Part shown: positions 42,294-51,318 of the stretch, piece by piece
Numbering within the stretch: the first letter of the stretch is position 1
Layout: every line of letters starts with the position of its first letter
The notes under the pieces: generated by a model
The model's input: only the letters and a program-made list of their open reading frames with translations
Told to the model about the DNA's origin: nothing
The model's database searches: none
Translations under genes and position numbers: made by a program
NCBI GenBank assembly: GCA_017409785.1
Contig: JAFQSD010000004.1
Location: 48,663-112,662 of the forward strand
From: Bacilli bacterium
GTDB lineage: Bacteria > Bacillota_I > Bacilli_A > RF39 > UBA660
Direction of reading: 5' to 3'
DNA length: 64,000 bases

Positions 42294-43433
42294 ATGAAAA
42301 AACAAGTAGAAAATAGTGATTTAAGATTAATGATTTTTAAAAGTGCAACAGATTTAGGAAATAAAATAGATGAGCACTTACTTGAAATGTATGGACTTGA
42401 TAAAGATGAATACACCTTTGCTGTACCAATAAAAGAAAACTTTTTTGAAGATGGTCATTTTAAAGTAGAAATAGAAGAAACTGTTAGAGGAAAAGATATG
42501 TTTATGCTAACAGATGTTGGAAATTATTCATTAGAATATAAAATGCATGGTTTTATAAATCATACAAGTCCAAATGATTTACTAATGGAATTAAAAGATG
42601 GAATAGGGGCATGTAATTGTCATGCTAAGAATATAAACATCATCATGCCACTACTTTATGCAGGAAGACAACATAGAAGAAATACTAGAGAAAATTTAAT
42701 GTGTGGAATGATGTTAAGAGAATTAGATTCTATCAGTAGAATAAAAAGCTTTATAACATTTGATGCTCATGATCAAGGTGTAGAACATGCAATTCATAAT
42801 ATGGAATTTGATAATTTCTTCCCAACAAATACAATTCTTGAAAGGTTTATTAATGACATGAGTATGAATAGATTAAAGAAGATTGTCTTTGTGGCTCCAG
42901 ACAATGGTGCCACAGGTAGAAGAAATGTCTATCTAAATTCATTTAACTCTAAATATATTCATCGTGAAGCAGGAAGTTTTATTAAACAAAGAGACTATAA
43001 TAATCTTGTGGATGGAAAATATCCAGTTATAGCCCATGACTACTGTGGAAATGAAGAACTAGATGGCTATACAGCCATAGTTAGTGATGATATGATTTCT
43101 AGTGGTGGCTCAATGTTTGATGTAATTGATGAATTAAAAAAACGTGGAGTAAAATATATTTACCTAATGACAACATATGCATTATTTACTAAAGGTATTG
43201 AAAAGTTTGAACAATATTATAAAGACGGTAAATTTGATGGACTATATACAACAAATTTATCATATATACCAGAAGAGTATAAAACATCAAAATGGTTACA
43301 TGTATGTGACTGCTCAAAAGATGTAGCTGAAATAATCTATAATATTCATAATGACCAATCAATATCATCTATATTAAGAGATAAATCATATCCAGTAAAA
43401 CTAGTAGAAAAGAAATTTGAAAGAGATAAATAG
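42294..43433 (+). CDS. ribose-phosphate pyrophosphokinase (Prs) family protein, long divergent paralogue
   Basis: FEDGHFKVEIEETVRGKDMFML, INIIMPLLYAGRQHRR and IVSDDMISSGGS match conserved Prs blocks. Extra insertions bring it to 379 aa. Confidence 0.6.
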   Translation: MKKQVENSDLRLMIFKSATDLGNKIDEHLLEMYGLDKDEYTFAVPIKENFFEDGHFKVEIEETVRGKDMFMLTDVGNYSLEYKMHGFINHTSPNDLLMELKDGIGACNCHAKNINIIMPLLYAGRQHRRNTRENLMCGMMLRELDSISRIKSFITFDAHDQGVEHAIHNMEFDNFFPTNTILERFINDMSMNRLKKIVFVAPDNGATGRRNVYLNSFNSKYIHREAGSFIKQRDYNNLVDGKYPVIAHDYCGNEELDGYTAIVSDDMISSGGSMFDVIDELKKRGVKYIYLMTTYALFTKGIEKFEQYYKDGKFDGLYTTNLSYIPEEYKTSKWLHVCDCSKDVAEIIYNIHNDQSISSILRDKSYPVKLVEKKFERDK

Positions 43434-43460
43434 GATGTACATTGTACATCTTTTTTTCTT
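43434..43460 (+). terminator. rho-independent terminator
   Basis: ggatgtaca ttg tacatc followed by a T7 run. Confidence 0.5.
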
Positions 43461-43494
43461 ATGTTATAATATATACCACTAGAGGAGGCAGCCT

Positions 43495-44385
43495 ATGTTT
43501 AAAACAGATATTAACTTAAACTTATATAAAACATTCTATGAACTATCAAAATATAAGAGTTTTTCTGAAACCGCAAAACAGACTTATATGTCACAATCAG
43601 CAATTAGCAAATCAATTAAAAAGTTAGAGGAAGAACTAGGAACAACACTTTTTGTCAGAAAGAAAAACGGCGTAGACTTAACAGAAAAAGGTGAAGAACT
43701 TCTTTTCTTCGTAGAACAATCATTTAATAGTTTAGTAACAGCTGAAAGAAGAATGTTAGAAACAAATAATTTAGACCGTGGAAAACTTTCTATTGGTATG
43801 CCTTCAAATATAGGTTCATTCTATTTATTTGATCATATTATTAAATTTCATAATGATTATCCAAATATTGAAGTTACTATAATAACTGGTTCAACTACCA
43901 AACTATTAAGTTTACTAGAGTCACACGAAGTAGACTTTGTAATTGATACACCACCATTTAAAAATTTAGATAAAAATAAAACAATTATTAAATTAGATAC
44001 AGTAAATTATTGTTTTATTTCTAAAGATAAAAGTAATATTACAAGTGTTAAAGACTTAGAAGATAAACAATTAATTCTTCCAATTCCAAAAACAGAAAAT
44101 AGAAATAAACTCGATTTAGTTTTTAAAGAAACAAATACTGAAGTCCAAAACGTTTTAAACATCCACACAACAGAAATGATAATTGCTGCCGTTAAAAGAA
44201 ATTTAGGTATTGGTTACGTTATCGAAGACTTAGTTAAATATGAACTAGAAAATAATGAATTATATAAAGTACCAATTAAAGAAGAATTACAAAAAATAGA
44301 CATCGATTTAATATATGATTATAACTATCTTACAACAGCCTCAATTAAGTTCTTAAAAAACTACATGAATATAGATATGAAATAA
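43495..44385 (+). CDS. LysR-family transcriptional regulator
   Basis: N-terminal HTH (FSETAKQTYMSQSAISKSIKKLEEELG) and a C-terminal substrate-binding domain; 296 aa. Confidence 0.8.
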   Translation: MFKTDINLNLYKTFYELSKYKSFSETAKQTYMSQSAISKSIKKLEEELGTTLFVRKKNGVDLTEKGEELLFFVEQSFNSLVTAERRMLETNNLDRGKLSIGMPSNIGSFYLFDHIIKFHNDYPNIEVTIITGSTTKLLSLLESHEVDFVIDTPPFKNLDKNKTIIKLDTVNYCFISKDKSNITSVKDLEDKQLILPIPKTENRNKLDLVFKETNTEVQNVLNIHTTEMIIAAVKRNLGIGYVIEDLVKYELENNELYKVPIKEELQKIDIDLIYDYNYLTTASIKFLKNYMNIDMK

Positions 44386-44462
44386 AGTCATAATTAGTAT
44401 GAATAAAGGATATTAGACATAATGTCCTTTTTATTTTACACTGAATTTGAGGTGGAAATAAT

Positions 44463-45446
44463 ATGTTTAAAAAAATCGGAGTCTTTAAAGACTTTACTGA
44501 TGGTACTATAAAATGTGTTTATGAAAATAACACAAAGAAAGTGATAGAAATATCACTATTATTTAACAAAGAAGATAAAAATGTAGTGTGTGCACCAACT
44601 CATCATTTTTGTAATATGGGTTGTAAAATGTGTCATCTAACTAATAAAGGATTAAATAAAAAAATGAATCCAATTACACAAGAAGACTTTATGGCTGTCT
44701 TATTAGATGCTCTAAGTTATTTCAATAACTCTAAGAAAAAATTAATAATTTCTTTTATGGGAGTAGGAGAGCCATTACTTAATATAGATTTAATCAAAGA
44801 TATTTATCTAAATGAAAAACAAATTAAAGAAAAATATAATTATAGTGAAATAGGTTATGCTGTATCAACAATGATGCCTAATAGAAATGTTGATAGATTA
44901 ATTCAACTTGTTAATCTTTACAACATTCCATTAAAACTTCATTTCTCATTACATACACCAGACGATAAAAAAAGATATGACCTAATTCCAAATACTAAAG
45001 TAAGTATTGATGAAGCTATGCAACTACTAGAGTCATACAGAAGTGAAGTAATGAAAAACAAAAAAATAATGAAAAAGTATGAAAAACTTCATAGTACTAA
45101 TGATCCGGTTGAAATACATTATACTTTAATCAAAAATGTAAATGATAGTGATGATCTATTGAATAAATTAATTAAAATAGAAAAGAAATATCAAATATGT
45201 ATAAAGTTTATTCGCTTTAATCCAATCAATGAATTGGAAAGAAGTTCATCAGAAGAAAAATGGATAGAAACTTTATCAAAAGAGATACCAAACTTAAGAG
45301 TAAAATCATACTCACCTCCAGGTAGAGAAGTAGGTTCATCTTGTGGAGAATTTACTAAACATTATTATCATCAAGAAATAGAGACAGAAGAAGAATTACA
45401 AGAATTTTTAAAATGGAAAGAAAAACATGAACTAATAGAAGAATAG
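44463..45446 (+). CDS. RlmN/Cfr-family radical SAM enzyme, minimal form lacking the N-terminal accessory domain
   Basis: C-x6-CNMGCKMC (extra Cys plus CxxxCxxC), ISFMGVGEPLLN, HFSLHTPDD, CIKFIRFNP and a C-terminal GSSCGEF all align with RlmN blocks. Only about 43 aa precede the first Cys. Confidence 0.6.
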   Translation: MFKKIGVFKDFTDGTIKCVYENNTKKVIEISLLFNKEDKNVVCAPTHHFCNMGCKMCHLTNKGLNKKMNPITQEDFMAVLLDALSYFNNSKKKLIISFMGVGEPLLNIDLIKDIYLNEKQIKEKYNYSEIGYAVSTMMPNRNVDRLIQLVNLYNIPLKLHFSLHTPDDKKRYDLIPNTKVSIDEAMQLLESYRSEVMKNKKIMKKYEKLHSTNDPVEIHYTLIKNVNDSDDLLNKLIKIEKKYQICIKFIRFNPINELERSSSEEKWIETLSKEIPNLRVKSYSPPGREVGSSCGEFTKHYYHQEIETEEELQEFLKWKEKHELIEE

Positions 45447-45455
45447 GAGAATATT

Positions 45456-45791
45456 ATGCTAGAATTTTTATTTAACACAACAATGTCAGGAACTGCTTTA
45501 GTAGCTCCTCCATTTACAACAACAATGACCATAAGTGAAGATGGAAACAATGATGACTTAGCTACAACAACAGCAGCACTTTATACAACTACATCAGTAG
45601 GAGCAAGTATCTATATGAATATAGATGAGATAAAACAAGTATTTGATGCAATTGCTTGTTTAGAATCATATAGTCAATCTGAATTACAAGAATTAGACAA
45701 TTTACTCCAAGCTAAATCATTGGAATTTGATTTACCAGCACAAGAATTGCTTGATAAACCAAAAGTATTTATGAAAAACTATACAAAATAA
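45456..45791 (+). CDS. small acidic protein with Thr-rich N-terminus, unknown
   Basis: GGAG RBS, 9 nt after the radical SAM stop; 111 aa. Confidence 0.35.
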   Translation: MLEFLFNTTMSGTALVAPPFTTTMTISEDGNNDDLATTTAALYTTTSVGASIYMNIDEIKQVFDAIACLESYSQSELQELDNLLQAKSLEFDLPAQELLDKPKVFMKNYTK

Positions 45792-45836
45792 ATAATTTAT
45801 GTTATAATATGAAAGCGCTTAAGGGAGAGGAATATT

Positions 45837-46352
45837 ATGGCAGATTTAAGAGATATATATTTTGTAGTAGGAAAAAACTTATTTGAAAAAGATTTTGATC
45901 ATCAAACAACTGAACAAAAGAAAAAGTTAGTTGAAGGTTCGTTAAAAACATATGTAGCATCAAAAATAGTAAGAGAAAGTACTGAACAAGCATTTAAACT
46001 AAGTGAAAATCCAAATGTATCTTTAGATGAATTAGTTGAATTACTAGGTGAATTAATTCCTGAAGAAAAACATTTTGATACAATGAGACATTTAACTCAC
46101 TTTATGTTAAATATTGCTGGAGAAATGCAAGGTTGGTCAATTACTTGGTGGGATGAACAATTTATTGATAATCCATTAATTAAGTTTAATGAAGAAGGTA
46201 AAATTGATTCATTAACTACTCATAAATCATCATCATATGTACAAACTTTTAAATTTGTACATGACGTTTTTACAAGTTCATTTATGAATGAAAAAAATCA
46301 AAACAAACAATATACTTTGAAAGATACAAGAAAACAAGAAAGTAACGCTTAG
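45837..46352 (+). CDS. hypothetical protein
   Basis: RBS aagggagagg and its own TGtTATAAT promoter. Confidence 0.35.
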   Translation: MADLRDIYFVVGKNLFEKDFDHQTTEQKKKLVEGSLKTYVASKIVRESTEQAFKLSENPNVSLDELVELLGELIPEEKHFDTMRHLTHFMLNIAGEMQGWSITWWDEQFIDNPLIKFNEEGKIDSLTTHKSSSYVQTFKFVHDVFTSSFMNEKNQNKQYTLKDTRKQESNA

Positions 46353-46423
46353 TTGCTTTCTTTTCTTTTATTGAAAATAAAAGAAAAATATGTTAGTATA
46401 TAAGGCATTTAAGGGGGATATAT

Positions 46424-49354
46424 ATGAACTTTGAAATATTATTAAGTAAATTATTAAGACTGCCACTAAATAAAGCGTTAGATATATATAATGAGTATCT
46501 AAAAAATAATCAAGATAACTTTGCTAATAATTTACGCGCCTCAAACTTACTTATGGAAAAAACACAAACAAGAAAAAGAATTAAAGATGAATGTTTTGAA
46601 ACTGCACTTATGGCTTTGGCTTTCATGTCACAAAAGAAGAACCAATTAGCGGATATGATGCTTGAAGAGACAAAGCCATACCCTATGATTGTTTGGATGG
46701 AAGTAATAGGAGAAATGGATGATGAAGGAATAAAAGGTGTATTAAAAAATTATGCAGATAAATTACCTCCTCCAATAATTGAGACATTAATTTTAAATTT
46801 ATCAGAGTCAAAGCAAGCAGTAGCAATAAATAAGTATAAAAATAGATTGGATTCAAAAAGTGAAATGTTTTATTCATTTTATTTATGTTTATCTAAAGAA
46901 GCACAACAAGAACTTGATAGACTGACTAATAAAGCTGTAAAAGTAAATCCACTACTACAATTGAGTGATCAAGAACCGTCTCAAATAAAAAAAAGCTTAA
47001 TTGTAAATAAAGAATTATATAAAGAGATTCCAATGGATGATATTATTGAAGTTCTTTTATTAAATGTAAATTCATCAGAAGATATTTTTGACATATTAAA
47101 GACTTATGAAGATAGACAAACAGAAATATCTGATATGCGATTTAAATTATTAGTTGGTAGACTAAAAGTATTATTAAATGAAGAAACATATAACCATAGA
47201 TTTGAAAATGCAGAAGAAATATTTAATAAACTAAAATCTCGTTTTAAAAGATTAGGTTTAAAAGACTCACTTGCTATCTTAGATGCCAAAGTAGATGGTT
47301 ATTATTCTTGTGAACATGGTAATGAAATAATTTATGAATTTTTAGATATTGCATATGAAAACGAAAACCTAAGAGACTTTGTAAATGAAAAAACAATCTC
47401 AGCACTGGTTGAAAGATTTGTAAATGATTGCAGAAGTAAAGAATATACAGTTGAAGACTTCCGAAGATTAGTTGAAAAAACTACAACGACTAAGCCTTAT
47501 AAGTTAATAAAAGATGATTATATTGAAGCAATAATTGCCTGTGGTTCATTAATGAAAAACCACATAATATCAGATCAAGATCCTCATTTTTTAGAATTAC
47601 GTAGAAGATTTATTTCTATGCTAAATGATCAAGTAGAAAAAGATGGAACTTTAACAGAAGAAGTTAATTTCAATGGATTATTCTATCGTTTAATAAAAGG
47701 TAGTGTTGATTTTGATAAGGTCTTTAATACTAAAACATATAAAGGCTTAATATATCTAACAAAATCTGGACGAGTATTTAATAATCCAGACTTGATCACA
47801 AAATATTTATCAGACGAGCAAATAAGAAAATTAGATATATCACCAGTTCTACATTTAAAGAAAGAGCTAATTAATGAAGCTAATAGAAAACATAAAGAAG
47901 TAAAGCCTAATAGTGAATTAGATCCTCGCTATGCAGTATCAGATTTTAAAGAAAGAATGATGCTTCAATTACTTTGTTATTTTGGTGAAACTAGAGCAAG
48001 ACATATTATCAAATCAGCTATGAAACCAACTAGAATGGAAAACATTTTTGATAGTCTTAATTACAAAGATATTAAGATTGATGAAAATGGTAAACCAATT
48101 GTAAATCAAGAATTAGTTGATTTCTTATTCGGAAGAGGTAGTGTAGCAGAAAAGAACACAGTTATGAATAGAATAATTCGAGAAGAATTATTAGATTTCG
48201 GAAGATTTGTTCCTGAAATATGTAATAACTACGAAGAGGTAAAAAAAGCTTGTCATGGAATTATAACTGTAAAAAGAGCAATGGCTCATTTTGAAGATAT
48301 AGTTCTTCCTATTGAGTTAAAACCAAATGAACGAGAATTTAAACCGGCATTAAAAGAAATGCGTATTACTAAAGAAGATACTTTAGCCAAGGGAGTTTCC
48401 TTATGTCATGATGCCAAAAAAAGAACATCATCAACTATACCAAAAGTAAAAGGAAAATTAGGAGACTTTACATATGAAATACTAGATGTAAAAGATCCGT
48501 TTGCTTTAGCGGTAGGATACTTATCACATTGTTGTTTTGTTGTTGATGGTATTTCATATTCAGCATTAAAACATTCAATGCAATCTGTAAACGGAAGAAC
48601 ATTTGTTGTTTATCATAAAGGCAAATTTTTAACACAAAGTTGGATGTGGAGAAATGGCGATGTTGTTTGTTTCGACAGTGTTGAATCAGGAAGTAGTATT
48701 CATGGTGCCTACAATGATGATATAAAATTAGTAGATGTCTACAAACATGTCGCGGATGAAATAATGGATATTTCAAAATGTAATGAAACGGATGCAGAAA
48801 GAGTTAAAGTAGTCACAGTAGGGGCATCAGATTATATCTTCAAAGGACTACCACAAGTCGAAGGAAAAGTTCCAAGACCACAAGAAAGAGATGTATATGT
48901 TTACGATTCATCAACGCAAGGAATTCTTGCAGGAGAAATGCCTAAAAAGCCAAATTATGATCCTGTATCAATTAGATACAAAGACCCAAGAAAAAGAGTG
49001 CATAAGTTCTTAAGTATTGAAGAAGCAGATGTTGATGATTTAGATGAAGCATTATTAAAACTACAATCAATTAAATATGAGTCTACTGGTAGTGAAGAAG
49101 TAGAAGATATTACTACAATGAACCAACTATTTGTTGGCCAAGACTGGTATATAAAAACAACAAAAGATGGCACTGTCGAAGTAGAAATATTAGGTGAGGA
49201 AGATGCTTCACTTGAAGAATGTAAACGATATGCTGAACTGTTAGGAATAGAATTTGAAATGGAACACAAAGAATTAAATGATGGTTACCAATTATCAAAA
49301 GACGATGTAGTAAAACAGCTACGAAAGACAAAATTAGAAAGTAGGAGGGGATAA
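46424..49354 (+). CDS. large (976 aa) cytoplasmic protein of unknown function
   Basis: No P-loop or known nuclease motif is visible. The C-terminal third has a Cys/His/Asp-containing segment (..GYLSHCCFVVDG..VVYHKG..RNGDVV..). Strong RBS aaggggga. Confidence 0.5.
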   Translation: MNFEILLSKLLRLPLNKALDIYNEYLKNNQDNFANNLRASNLLMEKTQTRKRIKDECFETALMALAFMSQKKNQLADMMLEETKPYPMIVWMEVIGEMDDEGIKGVLKNYADKLPPPIIETLILNLSESKQAVAINKYKNRLDSKSEMFYSFYLCLSKEAQQELDRLTNKAVKVNPLLQLSDQEPSQIKKSLIVNKELYKEIPMDDIIEVLLLNVNSSEDIFDILKTYEDRQTEISDMRFKLLVGRLKVLLNEETYNHRFENAEEIFNKLKSRFKRLGLKDSLAILDAKVDGYYSCEHGNEIIYEFLDIAYENENLRDFVNEKTISALVERFVNDCRSKEYTVEDFRRLVEKTTTTKPYKLIKDDYIEAIIACGSLMKNHIISDQDPHFLELRRRFISMLNDQVEKDGTLTEEVNFNGLFYRLIKGSVDFDKVFNTKTYKGLIYLTKSGRVFNNPDLITKYLSDEQIRKLDISPVLHLKKELINEANRKHKEVKPNSELDPRYAVSDFKERMMLQLLCYFGETRARHIIKSAMKPTRMENIFDSLNYKDIKIDENGKPIVNQELVDFLFGRGSVAEKNTVMNRIIREELLDFGRFVPEICNNYEEVKKACHGIITVKRAMAHFEDIVLPIELKPNEREFKPALKEMRITKEDTLAKGVSLCHDAKKRTSSTIPKVKGKLGDFTYEILDVKDPFALAVGYLSHCCFVVDGISYSALKHSMQSVNGRTFVVYHKGKFLTQSWMWRNGDVVCFDSVESGSSIHGAYNDDIKLVDVYKHVADEIMDISKCNETDAERVKVVTVGASDYIFKGLPQVEGKVPRPQERDVYVYDSSTQGILAGEMPKKPNYDPVSIRYKDPRKRVHKFLSIEEADVDDLDEALLKLQSIKYESTGSEEVEDITTMNQLFVGQDWYIKTTKDGTVEVEILGEEDASLEECKRYAELLGIEFEMEHKELNDGYQLSKDDVVKQLRKTKLESRRG

Positions 49355-49355
49355 T

Positions 49356-50045
49356 ATGTTAATTGCTGAAAATATAAAACAACATTTAGCAGAAGCAACA
49401 ATATCAGGAAGAAGATATTATGAAGAACATCCTGAATGTCGTATTCATCATGAAGTTGCAGAATTAATCCCTGATGACATAGATGTTGATAATCTAATCA
49501 TTGCTTATAAAATATGTTTAGATAATTATGAAAAACATCAAGGAAACGTTTTACCATTTATTGCAACTATTCCTCAGTATGTTCGTAAAGGTACTACGCA
49601 AGAATTTGCTAAAGAATTTAGAAAAAAATATATTACAGATATTCTTGGACTACCACCACAACCAGAACTAGAAACAGACTATGGCTATGTAGAAACTGAA
49701 CCATATGTAATAGATATTTCTAATAAAAATAAATATGCCGTACTAGCAGCACTATATAACTATTCAACACCTTATGGTATGGGATTTGCTCAATATGATC
49801 CATATGCATGGGATGAAGAAATTGGTAAACTTGCATTTGAAAAATTTGGTGAAGTATTAGCTGACGGTTCTATTTTCTTTGGCTGGGTTCAAGGGCGACT
49901 AATGCGCTGTAAGTTTAAAGATAATTTAGTTTATGTTGAAGCATACAATCGTGAAAACATTGATGGACTAGGTCAATTAGCAGTAAGTTCTGTACCTAAT
50001 CTAAATCAAAAAGAAAAGCCTATTCAAAAAGTAAAAAAAGATTAA
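49356..50045 (+). CDS. hypothetical protein (229 aa)
   Basis: Starts 2 nt after the upstream stop, with RBS aggagggg. Confidence 0.4.
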   Translation: MLIAENIKQHLAEATISGRRYYEEHPECRIHHEVAELIPDDIDVDNLIIAYKICLDNYEKHQGNVLPFIATIPQYVRKGTTQEFAKEFRKKYITDILGLPPQPELETDYGYVETEPYVIDISNKNKYAVLAALYNYSTPYGMGFAQYDPYAWDEEIGKLAFEKFGEVLADGSIFFGWVQGRLMRCKFKDNLVYVEAYNRENIDGLGQLAVSSVPNLNQKEKPIQKVKKD

Positions 50046-50075
50046 TAATATGATATACTAAAAATGGTGAATAAA

Positions 50076-50702
50076 ATGATTAATCAAGACATCAAAAAAT
50101 ATATAGAAAAAAATATCTATCCAGAATATCAAAAAAATGATAGTGGTCATAACATAGACCACATTAAATATGTTTTAGAAAGAAGTTTAAAGTTTGCTAA
50201 AACAGTTCCAGATATTAATCTAGACATGGTATATGTAATTGCAGCATTTCATGATATTGGTCATCATATAGATGCTAAAAACCATGAACAAGTATCTTCA
50301 GAAATACTGGAAAAAGATGAATTCATCAAAGATTATTTTACAAAAGATGAACTTAAAACAATGGTAGAAGCAGTAGTTGATCACAGAGCTAGTTTAGAGT
50401 ATATTCCACGTTCAATTTATGGAAAAATAGTCTCATCAGCAGATAGAAATACTGATATAGATATTCCTCTAAAACGTACATATTCTTATCGTTTAGAGCA
50501 TTTTCCAAATGCTACATTAGATGAAATCATTGAAGAATCACGTCAACATATTATTGATAAGTTTGGTTCAAATGGCTATGCCAAAGATAAAATATATTTT
50601 GAGGATGAAGATTATAATAATTTCTTAAAAGAAGTAGAATTATTCGCAGAAGATAAAGAACTTTTTAGAAAAAGATTTATTGAAGTAAATAATATTAAAT
50701 AA
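50076..50702 (+). CDS. HD-domain phosphohydrolase (YpgQ/YedJ-like small HD protein)
   Basis: H..H...AAFHDIGH...DHR...SSADR motif spacing of the HD superfamily; start taken at the second ATG. Confidence 0.6.
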   Translation: MINQDIKKYIEKNIYPEYQKNDSGHNIDHIKYVLERSLKFAKTVPDINLDMVYVIAAFHDIGHHIDAKNHEQVSSEILEKDEFIKDYFTKDELKTMVEAVVDHRASLEYIPRSIYGKIVSSADRNTDIDIPLKRTYSYRLEHFPNATLDEIIEESRQHIIDKFGSNGYAKDKIYFEDEDYNNFLKEVELFAEDKELFRKRFIEVNNIK

Positions 50703-50718
50703 CAAAGTAGGTGATACA

Positions 50719-51318
50719 ATGTCCAAAATAAGTAATGTCCTAACTTTTATGCAATACTTAAGTACAGGTAAAAAATATAGTATTCAAGAATTATCTGAAA
50801 AATTAGAAGTATCACCACGTATGATTAGAGTCTATAAAGAAGAACTAGAAAAAGCAGGAATTTATGTAGATACAATAATGGGTCCATATGGAGGATATGT
50901 CTTAAATCAATCTATTAGAATGCCTGTTAGAAAATTTAAAAAGAAAGATTATGAACTACTAGAAAAATATATCAGTGAAGAAAAAGATTTAGATAGAAAA
51001 GAAAAATTAATTCTATTAAAAGATAAGATTCAAGGAGTATATGCAGGTAGTAAACAAGAAGCACGTGAGTTAAATCTAAAAGATGAAACTCAAAGTAAAT
51101 ATAATTTACTAACACGTGCCATCAAAGAAAGAAAAAAAGTAAAAATATTATATTATTCTTATAATAAAGGAGAAAATGAAAGAGTCATATGTCCAGCAGA
51201 AATGTTTTTATTTCAAGATGGTTGGTATGTCGCAGCATTCTGTCTTGTAAAGAATGATATCCGTCATTTTGAATTAAAAAGAATAATAAAATATGAATTA
51301 TTAAATGAAACTTTTTAA
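50719..51318 (+). CDS. HTH-WYL domain transcriptional regulator
   Basis: N-terminal HTH (YSIQELSEKLEVSPRMIRVYKEELEKAGI) and C-terminal WYL core (FQDGWYVAAFCLVKNDIRHFELKRI). Confidence 0.6.
   Translation: MSKISNVLTFMQYLSTGKKYSIQELSEKLEVSPRMIRVYKEELEKAGIYVDTIMGPYGGYVLNQSIRMPVRKFKKKDYELLEKYISEEKDLDRKEKLILLKDKIQGVYAGSKQEARELNLKDETQSKYNLLTRAIKERKKVKILYYSYNKGENERVICPAEMFLFQDGWYVAAFCLVKNDIRHFELKRIIKYELLNETF

Follow-up and report, generated by a model that had tools for sequence, protein, structure and literature searches.

A LysR-linked short relative of RlmN and Cfr in gut Bacilli that may C-methylate a deoxypyrimidine nucleotide

The window examined here is a stretch of 64,000 nucleotides of low-GC DNA (about 27% GC) from a Bacilli bacterium (contig JAFQSD010000004.1). 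At positions 43495–45791 it carries three co-directional open reading frames (ORFs): a gene for a LysR-family regulator (lysR), a gene for a 327-residue radical S-adenosylmethionine (SAM) protein, hereafter the enzyme, and an ORF of 111 residues. An earlier note on this DNA had described these ORFs, the gap of 9 nt between the stop codon of the enzyme gene and the start of the 111-residue ORF, the GGAG ribosome-binding site of the latter and the Thr/Ala-rich N-terminal half of its product, and all were borne out. A public entry with exactly the sequence of the enzyme (P0001), from a metagenome-assembled genome (MAG), is titled 'MAG: radical SAM protein [Bacilli bacterium]'. It is proposed, with a probability of about 0.45, that the stretch is a LysR-controlled module whose enzyme C-methylates a free deoxypyrimidine mononucleotide, most simply deoxyuridine monophosphate (dUMP), with thymidine monophosphate (dTMP) as the simplest product. 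The proposal is drawn from the fusion partners and neighbours of related enzymes. The genes, their ribosome-binding sites and the catalytic cysteine codons are the following.

43495–44385, + strand: LysR-family transcriptional regulator, 296 residues (HTH_1 PF00126, 5.6e-19; LysR_substrate PF03466, 5.8e-26)
44449–44455, + strand: ribosome-binding site GAGGTGG of the enzyme gene, invariant in the spacer alignment of the six closest loci
44463–45446, + strand: 327-residue radical SAM protein, RlmN/Cfr-type core without N-terminal helical lobe (TIGR00048, 1.9e-26)
44589–44591, + strand: codon of C43, equivalent to RlmN C118 and Cfr C105, the adduct-resolving cysteine (HMMER alignment)
44610–44633, + strand: C50-x3-C54-x2-C57, predicted [4Fe-4S] cluster ligands (HMMER alignment)
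45342–45344, + strand: codon of C294 in GSSCGEFTKHYYH, equivalent to RlmN C355 and Cfr C338, the methyl-carrying cysteine (HMMER alignment)
45446–45449, + strand: GGAG ribosome-binding site of the 111-residue ORF, overlapping the stop codon of the enzyme gene (translational coupling)
45456–45791, + strand: 111-residue companion protein, lineage-restricted, with a Thr-rich N-terminus and an acidic helical C-terminus

The start codon at 44463 is the first one after an in-frame stop, is preceded by a strong ribosome-binding site and lies 77 nt 3' of the lysR stop codon, so that no N-terminal domain is hidden by a frameshift or a misplaced start. A word-indexed search retrieved 643 homologues, almost all of about 329 residues among the matches listed. 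A HMMER scan of 1.84 billion cluster representatives gave 65 clusters at E ≤ 1e-30 and 359 at E ≤ 1e-10; in the best 150 of them nearly all proteins have 280–340 residues, and the alignment begins at about residue 10 of the query. As more than 600 homologues share the short form, an artefact at the start site was rejected.

RlmN makes m2A2503 in 23S rRNA, and Cfr makes m8A2503, which gives resistance against phenicols, lincosamides, oxazolidinones, pleuromutilins and streptogramin A (PhLOPSA). Judged from the alignments, the enzyme keeps the complete machinery of these class-A radical SAM methylases. C43 pairs with C118 of RlmN and C105 of Cfr, and its spacing of seven residues to the cluster motif is the same. 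C50, C54 and C57 form the CxxxCxxC motif and align with the cluster cysteines of RlmN; the segments GVGEPLLN, HFSLHTPDD and FIRFNP align with RlmN blocks; and C294, in GSSCGEF, pairs with C355 of RlmN and C338 of Cfr. All five cysteines are invariant in an alignment of the close family. In an alignment of 85 sequences C50, C54 and C57 are invariant (85/85), and C43 and C294 are present in at least 90%. A signature specific to the family, GSSCGEFTKHYYH, follows the catalytic cysteine.

Only 42 residues precede C43. In an AlphaFold2 model calculated from the 85-sequence alignment (predicted local distance difference test, pLDDT, 95.6; predicted template-modelling score, pTM, 0.93), they form β-strands of the core extension, and the N-terminal helical lobe of about 70 residues is absent. 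When the model was compared with the PDB using Foldseek, the top 11 matches were all RlmN-family proteins or Cfr (E down to 2e-17, template-modelling score, TM, up to 0.70), and the next fold was that of the pyruvate formate-lyase-activating enzyme (5e-8). A HMMER search of proteins with solved structures gave, as the best sequence matches, Cfr (9p0p, 5.6e-12) and the RlmN of E. coli (3rf9, 2.5e-11). The NCBIfam profile of RlmN, TIGR00048, is covered from position 71 to 351 of 355. HMMER alignments, profile start and fold thus uphold the view of the earlier note that this is an RlmN/Cfr-like enzyme with both catalytic cysteines and without the N-terminal domain.

The family scores are low. The match to TIGR00048 reaches 92.9 bits against a cutoff of 290, and that to a second RlmN model, NF008396, 62.5 against 633; for the Cfr models the values are 73.8 against 530 (NF000424) and 64.1 against 550 (TIGR04432). 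In Cfr, residues Y97, W101 and S103 lie within 5 Å of the target adenine, S151 being also in the residue list (PMC12887959). The first three align with N35, K39 and V41 of the enzyme, and S151 with I95/I96. Only C105, S153, M155 and C338 are kept from the adenine site of Cfr, all of them catalytic or SAM-pocket positions, and N35 is invariant in the short family. Pfam and NCBIfam gave no match of the enzyme to PF00303 or to the ThyX models, the fold being a radical SAM barrel.

In a neighbour-joining tree, calculated without support values and with two reference sequences only, the short proteins form one clade on a long branch away from the RlmN and Cfr cores. Taken with the low scores, the absence of the lobe and the replaced contact residues, this tree led to the rejection of membership of canonical RlmN or Cfr; the clustering inside canonical RlmN that would have counted against the earlier note was not observed. 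By sequence comparison the short family is a large uncharacterised sister clade of RlmN and Cfr, and is neither of them. Public records call its members 'Fe-S-cluster redox domain-containing protein' or 'radical SAM protein' or give them labels of the RlmN type, and full-text searching of the library used turned up no paper on a short RlmN-like family.

From 185,579 species-representative genomes, 79 loci were recovered, mostly in gut MAGs labelled Bacilli, Tenericutes or Erysipelotrichaceae, with a few in Patescibacteria and a few labelled Woesearchaeota. Five MAG contigs labelled 'Muribaculaceae' (L024, L039, L057, L068 and L085) have 26–31% GC and a Bacilli-like gene content; these labels are probably binning errors or mislabelling. 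A distant standalone clade of about 295 residues, named RlmN by the JGI pipeline, is found in housekeeping or little-characterised phage contexts and may have another substrate. One distant short homologue, P0353, sits among mreB, holB, frr and a tRNA synthetase gene. In the viral contexts L092 and L093 and around P0340 of the distant clade, the neighbours are mostly without assigned function.

The dCMP (deoxycytidine monophosphate) deaminase and dUTPase share one product, dUMP, and it is to enzymes of this kind that the family is repeatedly joined. ORFs were called in 85 non-redundant species-level loci and all neighbouring proteins were clustered. A dCMP deaminase is fused to the C-terminus of the enzyme in 11 of the 85 loci, at no fewer than five positions of the tree, and also in the metagenomic clusters P0056, P0072, P0082, P0086, P0116 and P0122. 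The fused domain matches human dCMP deaminase at 1.7e-54 and ComEB at 3e-26. One 677-residue protein (L041, 4291–6324) is a triple fusion of the radical SAM core, a dCMP-deaminase-like domain and a trimeric dUTPase (PF00692, 9.7e-20). Its deaminase domain is degenerate (HATSN, PDYEC): the catalytic Glu is gone, as is one zinc cysteine. Apparently one activity that yields dUMP has been swapped for another. In another locus (L030), a dUTPase gene lies 139 nt downstream of an enzyme-deaminase fusion. In a Buchananbacteria MAG of the candidate phyla radiation (CPR; L084, 44% identity), a separate gene of the dCMP deaminase family lies directly upstream and overlaps the enzyme gene, an order opposite to that of the fusions. 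A further homologue, P0139 (41% identical), ends in a nucleoside 2-deoxyribosyltransferase domain (PF05014, 4.7e-9).

A pyrophosphohydrolase of the MazG or phosphoribosyl-ATP pyrophosphohydrolase (PRA-PH) type directly adjoins the enzyme in six loci; among the PDB proteins whose function has been studied, DR2231 is the closest to it. According to a review (PMC5122711), dUTP is cleaved by MazG-like enzymes of D. radiodurans, and the MazG superfamily includes the dimeric dUTPases. In some loci the MazG/PRA-PH gene is split at an A-run into ORFs of 38–43 and 93 residues (L001, 7006–7823; L010, 9006–9399), which could reflect ribosomal slippage, decay or a sequencing error in the homopolymer. L001 has it as a tandem duplicate, and it is intact in L018, L019 and L074.

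Within loci extending about 8 kb to either side, 20 of the 21 occurrences of a deaminase, dUTPase or MazG domain are fused or adjacent to the enzyme; the 21 are not all phylogenetically independent, and they represent at least seven different architectures. The dCMP deaminase is fused in 11 cases and adjacent in 1, the dUTPase fused in 1 and adjacent in 1, and the MazG-type protein adjacent in 6. The supply of dUMP by dCMP deaminase to ThyA-family enzymes is established, for instance by a dedicated deaminase in phages (PMC8989533). One of the deaminase fusions (L069, 1477–13883, in a MAG labelled Lachnospiraceae with 37% GC) has around it genes for a ThyA-family enzyme, a formyltransferase, two thymidylate-kinase-like proteins and a 5-hydroxymethyldeoxyuridine DNA kinase domain (3e-107). 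The cluster further encodes a nucleotidyltransferase, an acyl-carrier protein and two AMP-dependent ligases, and it looks like a pathway for DNA-base hypermodification or for a nucleoside natural product. Its ThyA-like gene is the only one among the window and about 90 loci.

The other recurrent partner is the regulator. An upstream gene is present in 79 loci, and in 50 of these it is a LysR gene lying directly upstream of the enzyme gene on the same strand, in surroundings that are otherwise unrelated. The partner LysR proteins have a median pairwise identity of 61%, that of the window being 58% identical to the LysR of a mobile-element variant (L001). Their divergence tracks that of the enzymes (Spearman 0.81 over 1,035 pairs), which is due in part to shared species phylogeny. 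These comparisons mark LysR as a dedicated subfamily and a co-inherited partner of the enzyme. The earlier note was right to place it immediately upstream, but had counted it as a mere neighbour, and this second part gives way to a partnership conserved in 50 of 79 loci.

In an alignment of the closest loci, the spacer between lysR and the enzyme gene is unusually conserved. It holds two symmetrical elements.

44377–44391, no strand assigned: dyad ATGA-N7-TCAT with the 'T-N11-A' shape of a LysR box; it overlaps the lysR stop codon and is unchanged in the six closest loci
44405–44430, + strand: inverted repeat AAAGGATATTA-GACA-TAATGTCCTTT with a T-run after it (RNA fold −10.9 kcal/mol, z = −4.0)

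The dyad is a candidate LysR binding site; of 49 spacers, just 5 contain its exact form, and 44 have an inverted repeat of 8 bp or more. Even between loci that share no more than about 60% protein identity, the core GATATT(T)G...AATATC keeps its sequence. Because the sequence of the arms is itself conserved and does not co-vary, the repeat at 44405–44430 is read as a likely candidate operator of LysR, possibly serving also as a weak terminator between lysR and the enzyme gene.

Part of the family is mobile. In L001–L005 and L101 (for example L101, 7576–15553), an identical LysR-enzyme-MazG cassette has a large serine recombinase, a resolvase and a Mob_Pre relaxase on its flanks. The contig collection lists the enzyme of this variant (P0021) in 53 blocks; five places were examined, each from a different metagenome assembly. 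The cassette rides a mobilisable element that is widespread in gut metagenomes. A canonical rlmN was sought beside the PASTA gene that adjoins the mobile element; the neighbours are radC and mreCD. Elsewhere the enzyme gene is fragmented or truncated (L089, L090 and L091), for example into pieces of 95, 65 and 124 residues in a complete MAG chromosome of 1.46 Mb (CP091726.1, L090), and the module is dispensable in some lineages. No family member was found in 72,556 plasmids of PLSDB, where the only matches, at about 1e-11, were true cfr and rlmN genes; a plasmid-borne resistance gene was rejected on this basis. PADLOC gave no match for the enzyme, LysR or the 111-residue ORF, only the deaminase domain of fusion P0082 matching a dCTPase model, and an anti-phage defence system was likewise rejected.

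Jumbo phages also carry relatives, and so do replication or nucleotide modules of phages. Klebsiella phage 05F01 has a distant short homologue (29% identical) immediately upstream of nrdD/nrdG (L098, 38631–39560; L100, 16585–17565). The short homologue of this phage accompanies the anaerobic nrdD/nrdG and a ThyX-type gene the aerobic nrdAB, an arrangement that may be an oxygen-related division of labour.

The loss of the N-terminal lobe and of the adenine-contact residues, the dedicated LysR, the mobile carriage, the pseudogenes and, above all, the fusions to enzymes that produce dUMP speak against a housekeeping RNA methylase or a Cfr-type resistance gene, and a deoxypyrimidine C-methylase is therefore proposed. 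Architecture, catalytic residues, fold, separation of the clade, linkage to LysR, and fusions and adjacencies are observed; we infer the chemistry from homology, the substrate class and the product from fusions and neighbours, and also what LysR would sense. One molecule of SAM would methylate C294. A second would be cleaved at the iron-sulfur cluster held by C50, C54 and C57, giving a 5'-deoxyadenosyl radical that would take a hydrogen from methyl-C294. The resulting thiomethylene radical would add to an sp2 ring carbon of the substrate, and C43 would resolve the covalent adduct, leaving a C-methyl group behind. With the methyl group at C5 of dUMP, the product would be dTMP and the enzyme a SAM-dependent, folate-independent thymidylate synthase. 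Expression would be on demand through the dedicated LysR, which probably binds the conserved dyad between the two genes, and the 111-residue protein would be an accessory, translationally coupled to the enzyme and restricted to the lineage of the window. The earlier note had suggested that the substrate might not be rRNA at all and could be a small molecule, and the comparative evidence from fusions and neighbours fits this. The narrower claim, that the family is a third type of thymidylate synthase, a LysR-induced radical SAM methylase of dUMP C5 that works through methyl-cysteine and stems from the RlmN/Cfr lineage without use of folate, is rather doubtful.

Several observations weigh against the proposal. 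By analogy with RlmN, which acts on electron-poor carbons, attack at C6 of uracil is no less plausible than at C5. Phage 05F01, the one complete genome read, encodes a ThyX-type gene beside its aerobic nrdAB, which lends no support to the idea of a sole thymidylate synthase; given this gene and the ThyA-family gene of the hypermodification-like cluster, the enzyme need not be the thymidylate synthase. The pseudogenes and the mobile carriage make the gene an accessory one and not an essential one. The copy in the window has no deoxynucleotide partner, so that its function is transferred from relatives that are 52–63% identical. The 64-kb window contains no thyA, thyX, dut, dCMP deaminase or MazG gene, and a canonical rlmN was likewise not found there; the ThyA and ThyX search seeds were approximate, and the thyX negative is weak because the ThyX seed missed phage gene_234, which was recognised by its RHR-type motif. 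Finally, some distant short homologues such as P0353 stand in housekeeping or translation-related contexts, so that an enzyme without the N-terminal lobe may still act on RNA.

The alternative that survives best takes up this last point: the enzyme would be a minimal RNA methyltransferase of the RlmN type, acting on adenine in tRNA, rRNA or another RNA, and the deoxynucleotide partners would reflect co-regulation. Its nearest relatives in sequence and fold are all RNA methylases, both catalytic cysteines are retained, and the setting of P0353 and the RlmN label given to the distant clade by JGI point in the same direction. However, the scores are far under the RlmN and Cfr cutoffs, the N-terminal lobe is missing and the residues that contact adenine in Cfr are replaced. 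Repeated fusion to a dCMP deaminase, dUTPase or deoxyribosyltransferase, a dedicated LysR, mobile-element carriage and pseudogenes are all unusual for a housekeeping RNA-modification enzyme. An RNA substrate is therefore considered unlikely, if a serious contender.

Slightly further down stands the idea that a deoxypyrimidine nucleotide is indeed C-methylated, but to a product other than dTMP, for example a 6-methyl or other non-canonical derivative of dUMP or dCMP, which might be used for DNA hypermodification or have the role of an antimetabolite or antiviral nucleotide. The fusion in the thymidine-hypermodification-type cluster has a ThyA-family enzyme beside it already, and phage 05F01 has ThyX too. 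The phage relatives, in jumbo phages as well as in modules for replication or nucleotides, and the carriage by a mobilisable element are also consistent with it, as is the preference of RlmN-type radical addition for electron-poor carbons, if the analogy holds. We know of no such nucleotide, though, and no PADLOC defence model was matched. LysR control and the chromosomal, housekeeping-like contexts of most loci are atypical of defence or hypermodification cassettes, and the family as a whole has neither a kinase nor a polymerase as a conserved partner. Such a product is judged improbable.

The earlier note had also raised a peptide substrate and had asked whether the 111-residue ORF co-occurs with the enzyme. 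This ORF is a real gene in its sub-lineage. Compared with the homologue in L013, its dN/dS (ratio of nonsynonymous to synonymous substitution rates) is 0.21 at a dS of 0.89, the value for the enzyme being 0.14, and even where overall identity falls to 46%, the N-terminal motif LVAPPFTTTMTxSxDGxNDDLATTTA is almost unchanged. The AlphaFold2 model is of low confidence (pLDDT 52), with a disordered N-terminus and a helical hairpin. Among 5.8 billion proteins, nine clusters were found, all of 108–113 residues and all from the sub-lineage of the window. The ORF lies directly 3' of the enzyme gene in the window, L013, L094 and L095; it is cleanly deleted in L007/L008, the closest syntenic relative, whose enzyme is 88% identical, is degenerate in L009, and is absent from the about 80 other species-level loci examined. 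A general partner of the enzyme was thus rejected, and the lack of conservation that would count against the earlier note is largely what was observed: since the ORF is lineage-restricted and lost in L007/L008, it is an accessory protein and not a defining part of the system.

A C-methylase acting on the 111-residue protein in the manner of a maturase of peptides that are made by the ribosome and modified after translation (RiPPs) would explain the translational coupling of the two genes and the purifying selection on the almost invariant Thr-rich motif. NCBIfam RiPP maturase models do match, but weakly and within the radical SAM core only (residues 49–185), and Pfam gave no SPASM match, nor is any other peptide-recognition domain present. 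The substrate would have been lost in L007/L008 with the enzyme intact and would be wanting in about 80 other loci; the invariant residues of the enzyme are the same with or without the ORF. The support for a peptide substrate is thus confined to a lineage-restricted ORF, and this reading is very improbable.

Last, a Cfr-like resistance determinant methylating A2503 of 23S rRNA, whose relevance to resistance the earlier note had brought up, is hardly credible: homology to Cfr and the one variant carried as cargo by a mobilisable element common in gut metagenomes speak for it, but the 73.8 bits against a Cfr cutoff of 530, the loss of the substrate-contact residues of Cfr, the absence from the 72,556 catalogued plasmids and the fusions to and partnership with deoxynucleotide enzymes speak against it.

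The boundaries of the module are marked by the following features.

43432–43452, + strand: terminator-like hairpin ending the upstream phosphoribosylpyrophosphate-synthetase-like gene, 5' boundary of the module (9-bp stem with 3 GC pairs, then a T-run)
43443–43470, + strand: promoter-like site for lysR, TGTACA-16-TATAAT with an upstream TG (consensus match only)
45780–45808, + strand: promoter-like site for the next gene (171 residues), TATACA-17-TATAAT with TG, 3' boundary of the module (consensus match)

Promoter-like sites are not commoner than in shuffled sequence (20 found, 23 expected). The TATGTTATAATATGAAAGC block of the site at 45780–45808 is kept in L007 and L009. The gene 5' of lysR (42294–43433) encodes a phosphoribosylpyrophosphate synthetase of the PRK06827 type (348 bits, cutoff 327). 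It is syntenic only in the close relatives of the window and hence is probably not part of the module, though also an enzyme of nucleotide-precursor supply. Downstream, the 171-residue ORF (45837–46352) has no family match, is kept in L007, L009, L013, L094 and L095, and has its own promoter-like site with a TG-extended −10 element; the terminator-like hairpin at 46336–46362 belongs to it. It is followed by a 976-residue ORF (46424–49354) without Pfam, NCBIfam or PADLOC match, which has counterparts in L007 (978 residues) and L009 (985 residues), and, at 49356–51318, by genes for a 229-residue protein, an HD-domain protein and a WYL/HTH regulator (PADLOC WYL, 1.4e-30). In L013 and L094, both close relatives, the WYL regulator is retained and the 976-residue, 229-residue and HD genes are missing, so that 46424–51318 is regarded as a variable island.

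To our knowledge, no class-A radical SAM methylases other than RlmN and Cfr have been characterised, and the substrate of both is RNA. If the proposal is true, the short family would be a third class-A branch, on free deoxynucleotides, and the chemistry would extend to a new class of substrate. Were the product dTMP, there would be a new folate-free route to an essential DNA precursor, and inferences of nucleotide auxotrophy would change for genomes of uncultured gut Bacilli, CPR and DPANN. The hosts of such a folate-independent thymidylate synthase would be anaerobic gut Bacilli with reduced genomes, CPR bacteria and DPANN archaea, with carriage on mobilisable elements in some cases. Recipients of the mobile variant, whose element occurs in many samples from the human gut, could bypass ThyA, which would blunt antifolates or fluoropyrimidines and could bear on the tolerance of the microbiota to them. 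As for annotation, genes of the short family are named automatically 'radical SAM protein' or RlmN, and screens for resistance genes should not count them as cfr-like.

Three solved proteins offer the closest comparison. RlmN, the C2-methyltransferase of 23S rRNA A2503 and tRNA A37 (3rfa, 5hr6), resembles the enzyme in fold (Foldseek E 6e-15, TM 0.66), in the CxxxCxxC motif, in the equivalents of C118 and C355 at identical spacing, and in the GxGEPLLN, SLHxP.D and NP blocks. Identity is about 20%, however, and the enzyme lacks the N-terminal α-helical lobe and falls in a separate clade, the members of which are LysR-regulated, fused to deoxynucleotide enzymes, and patchy or mobile in their distribution. 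Cfr, the C8-methyltransferase of 23S rRNA A2503 responsible for PhLOPSA resistance (9p0p), is the best sequence match in the PDB and has the same class-A equipment; it differs in that Y97, W101 and S103 are replaced in the enzyme, which has no N-terminal lobe and is not found on catalogued plasmids. The best structural match is a radical SAM methyltransferase of Sphaerobacter thermophilus described as 'probable RlmN' (6fz6; Foldseek E 2e-17, TM 0.70, 22% identity). Its chain is longer (341–366 residues) and is matched in sequence from residue 94 onwards, so that it has an N-terminal region that the short family lacks.

With ThyA and ThyX the likeness is one of functional analogy only. The proposed substrate would be the same, as would the metabolic position downstream of dCMP deaminase and dUTPase. 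There is no kinship in sequence or fold, and the proposed methyl donor is SAM by a radical route instead of methylene-tetrahydrofolate. Four enzyme families are known to make 5-methyluracil: ThyA, ThyX, the SAM methyltransferases of the TrmA/RlmC/RlmD type, and TrmFO/RlmFO (PMC7226160). If the product is dTMP, the short family would carry out the same methylation of C5 of uracil, but by a fifth, distinct mechanism, that of a radical SAM enzyme with a methyl-cysteine intermediate.

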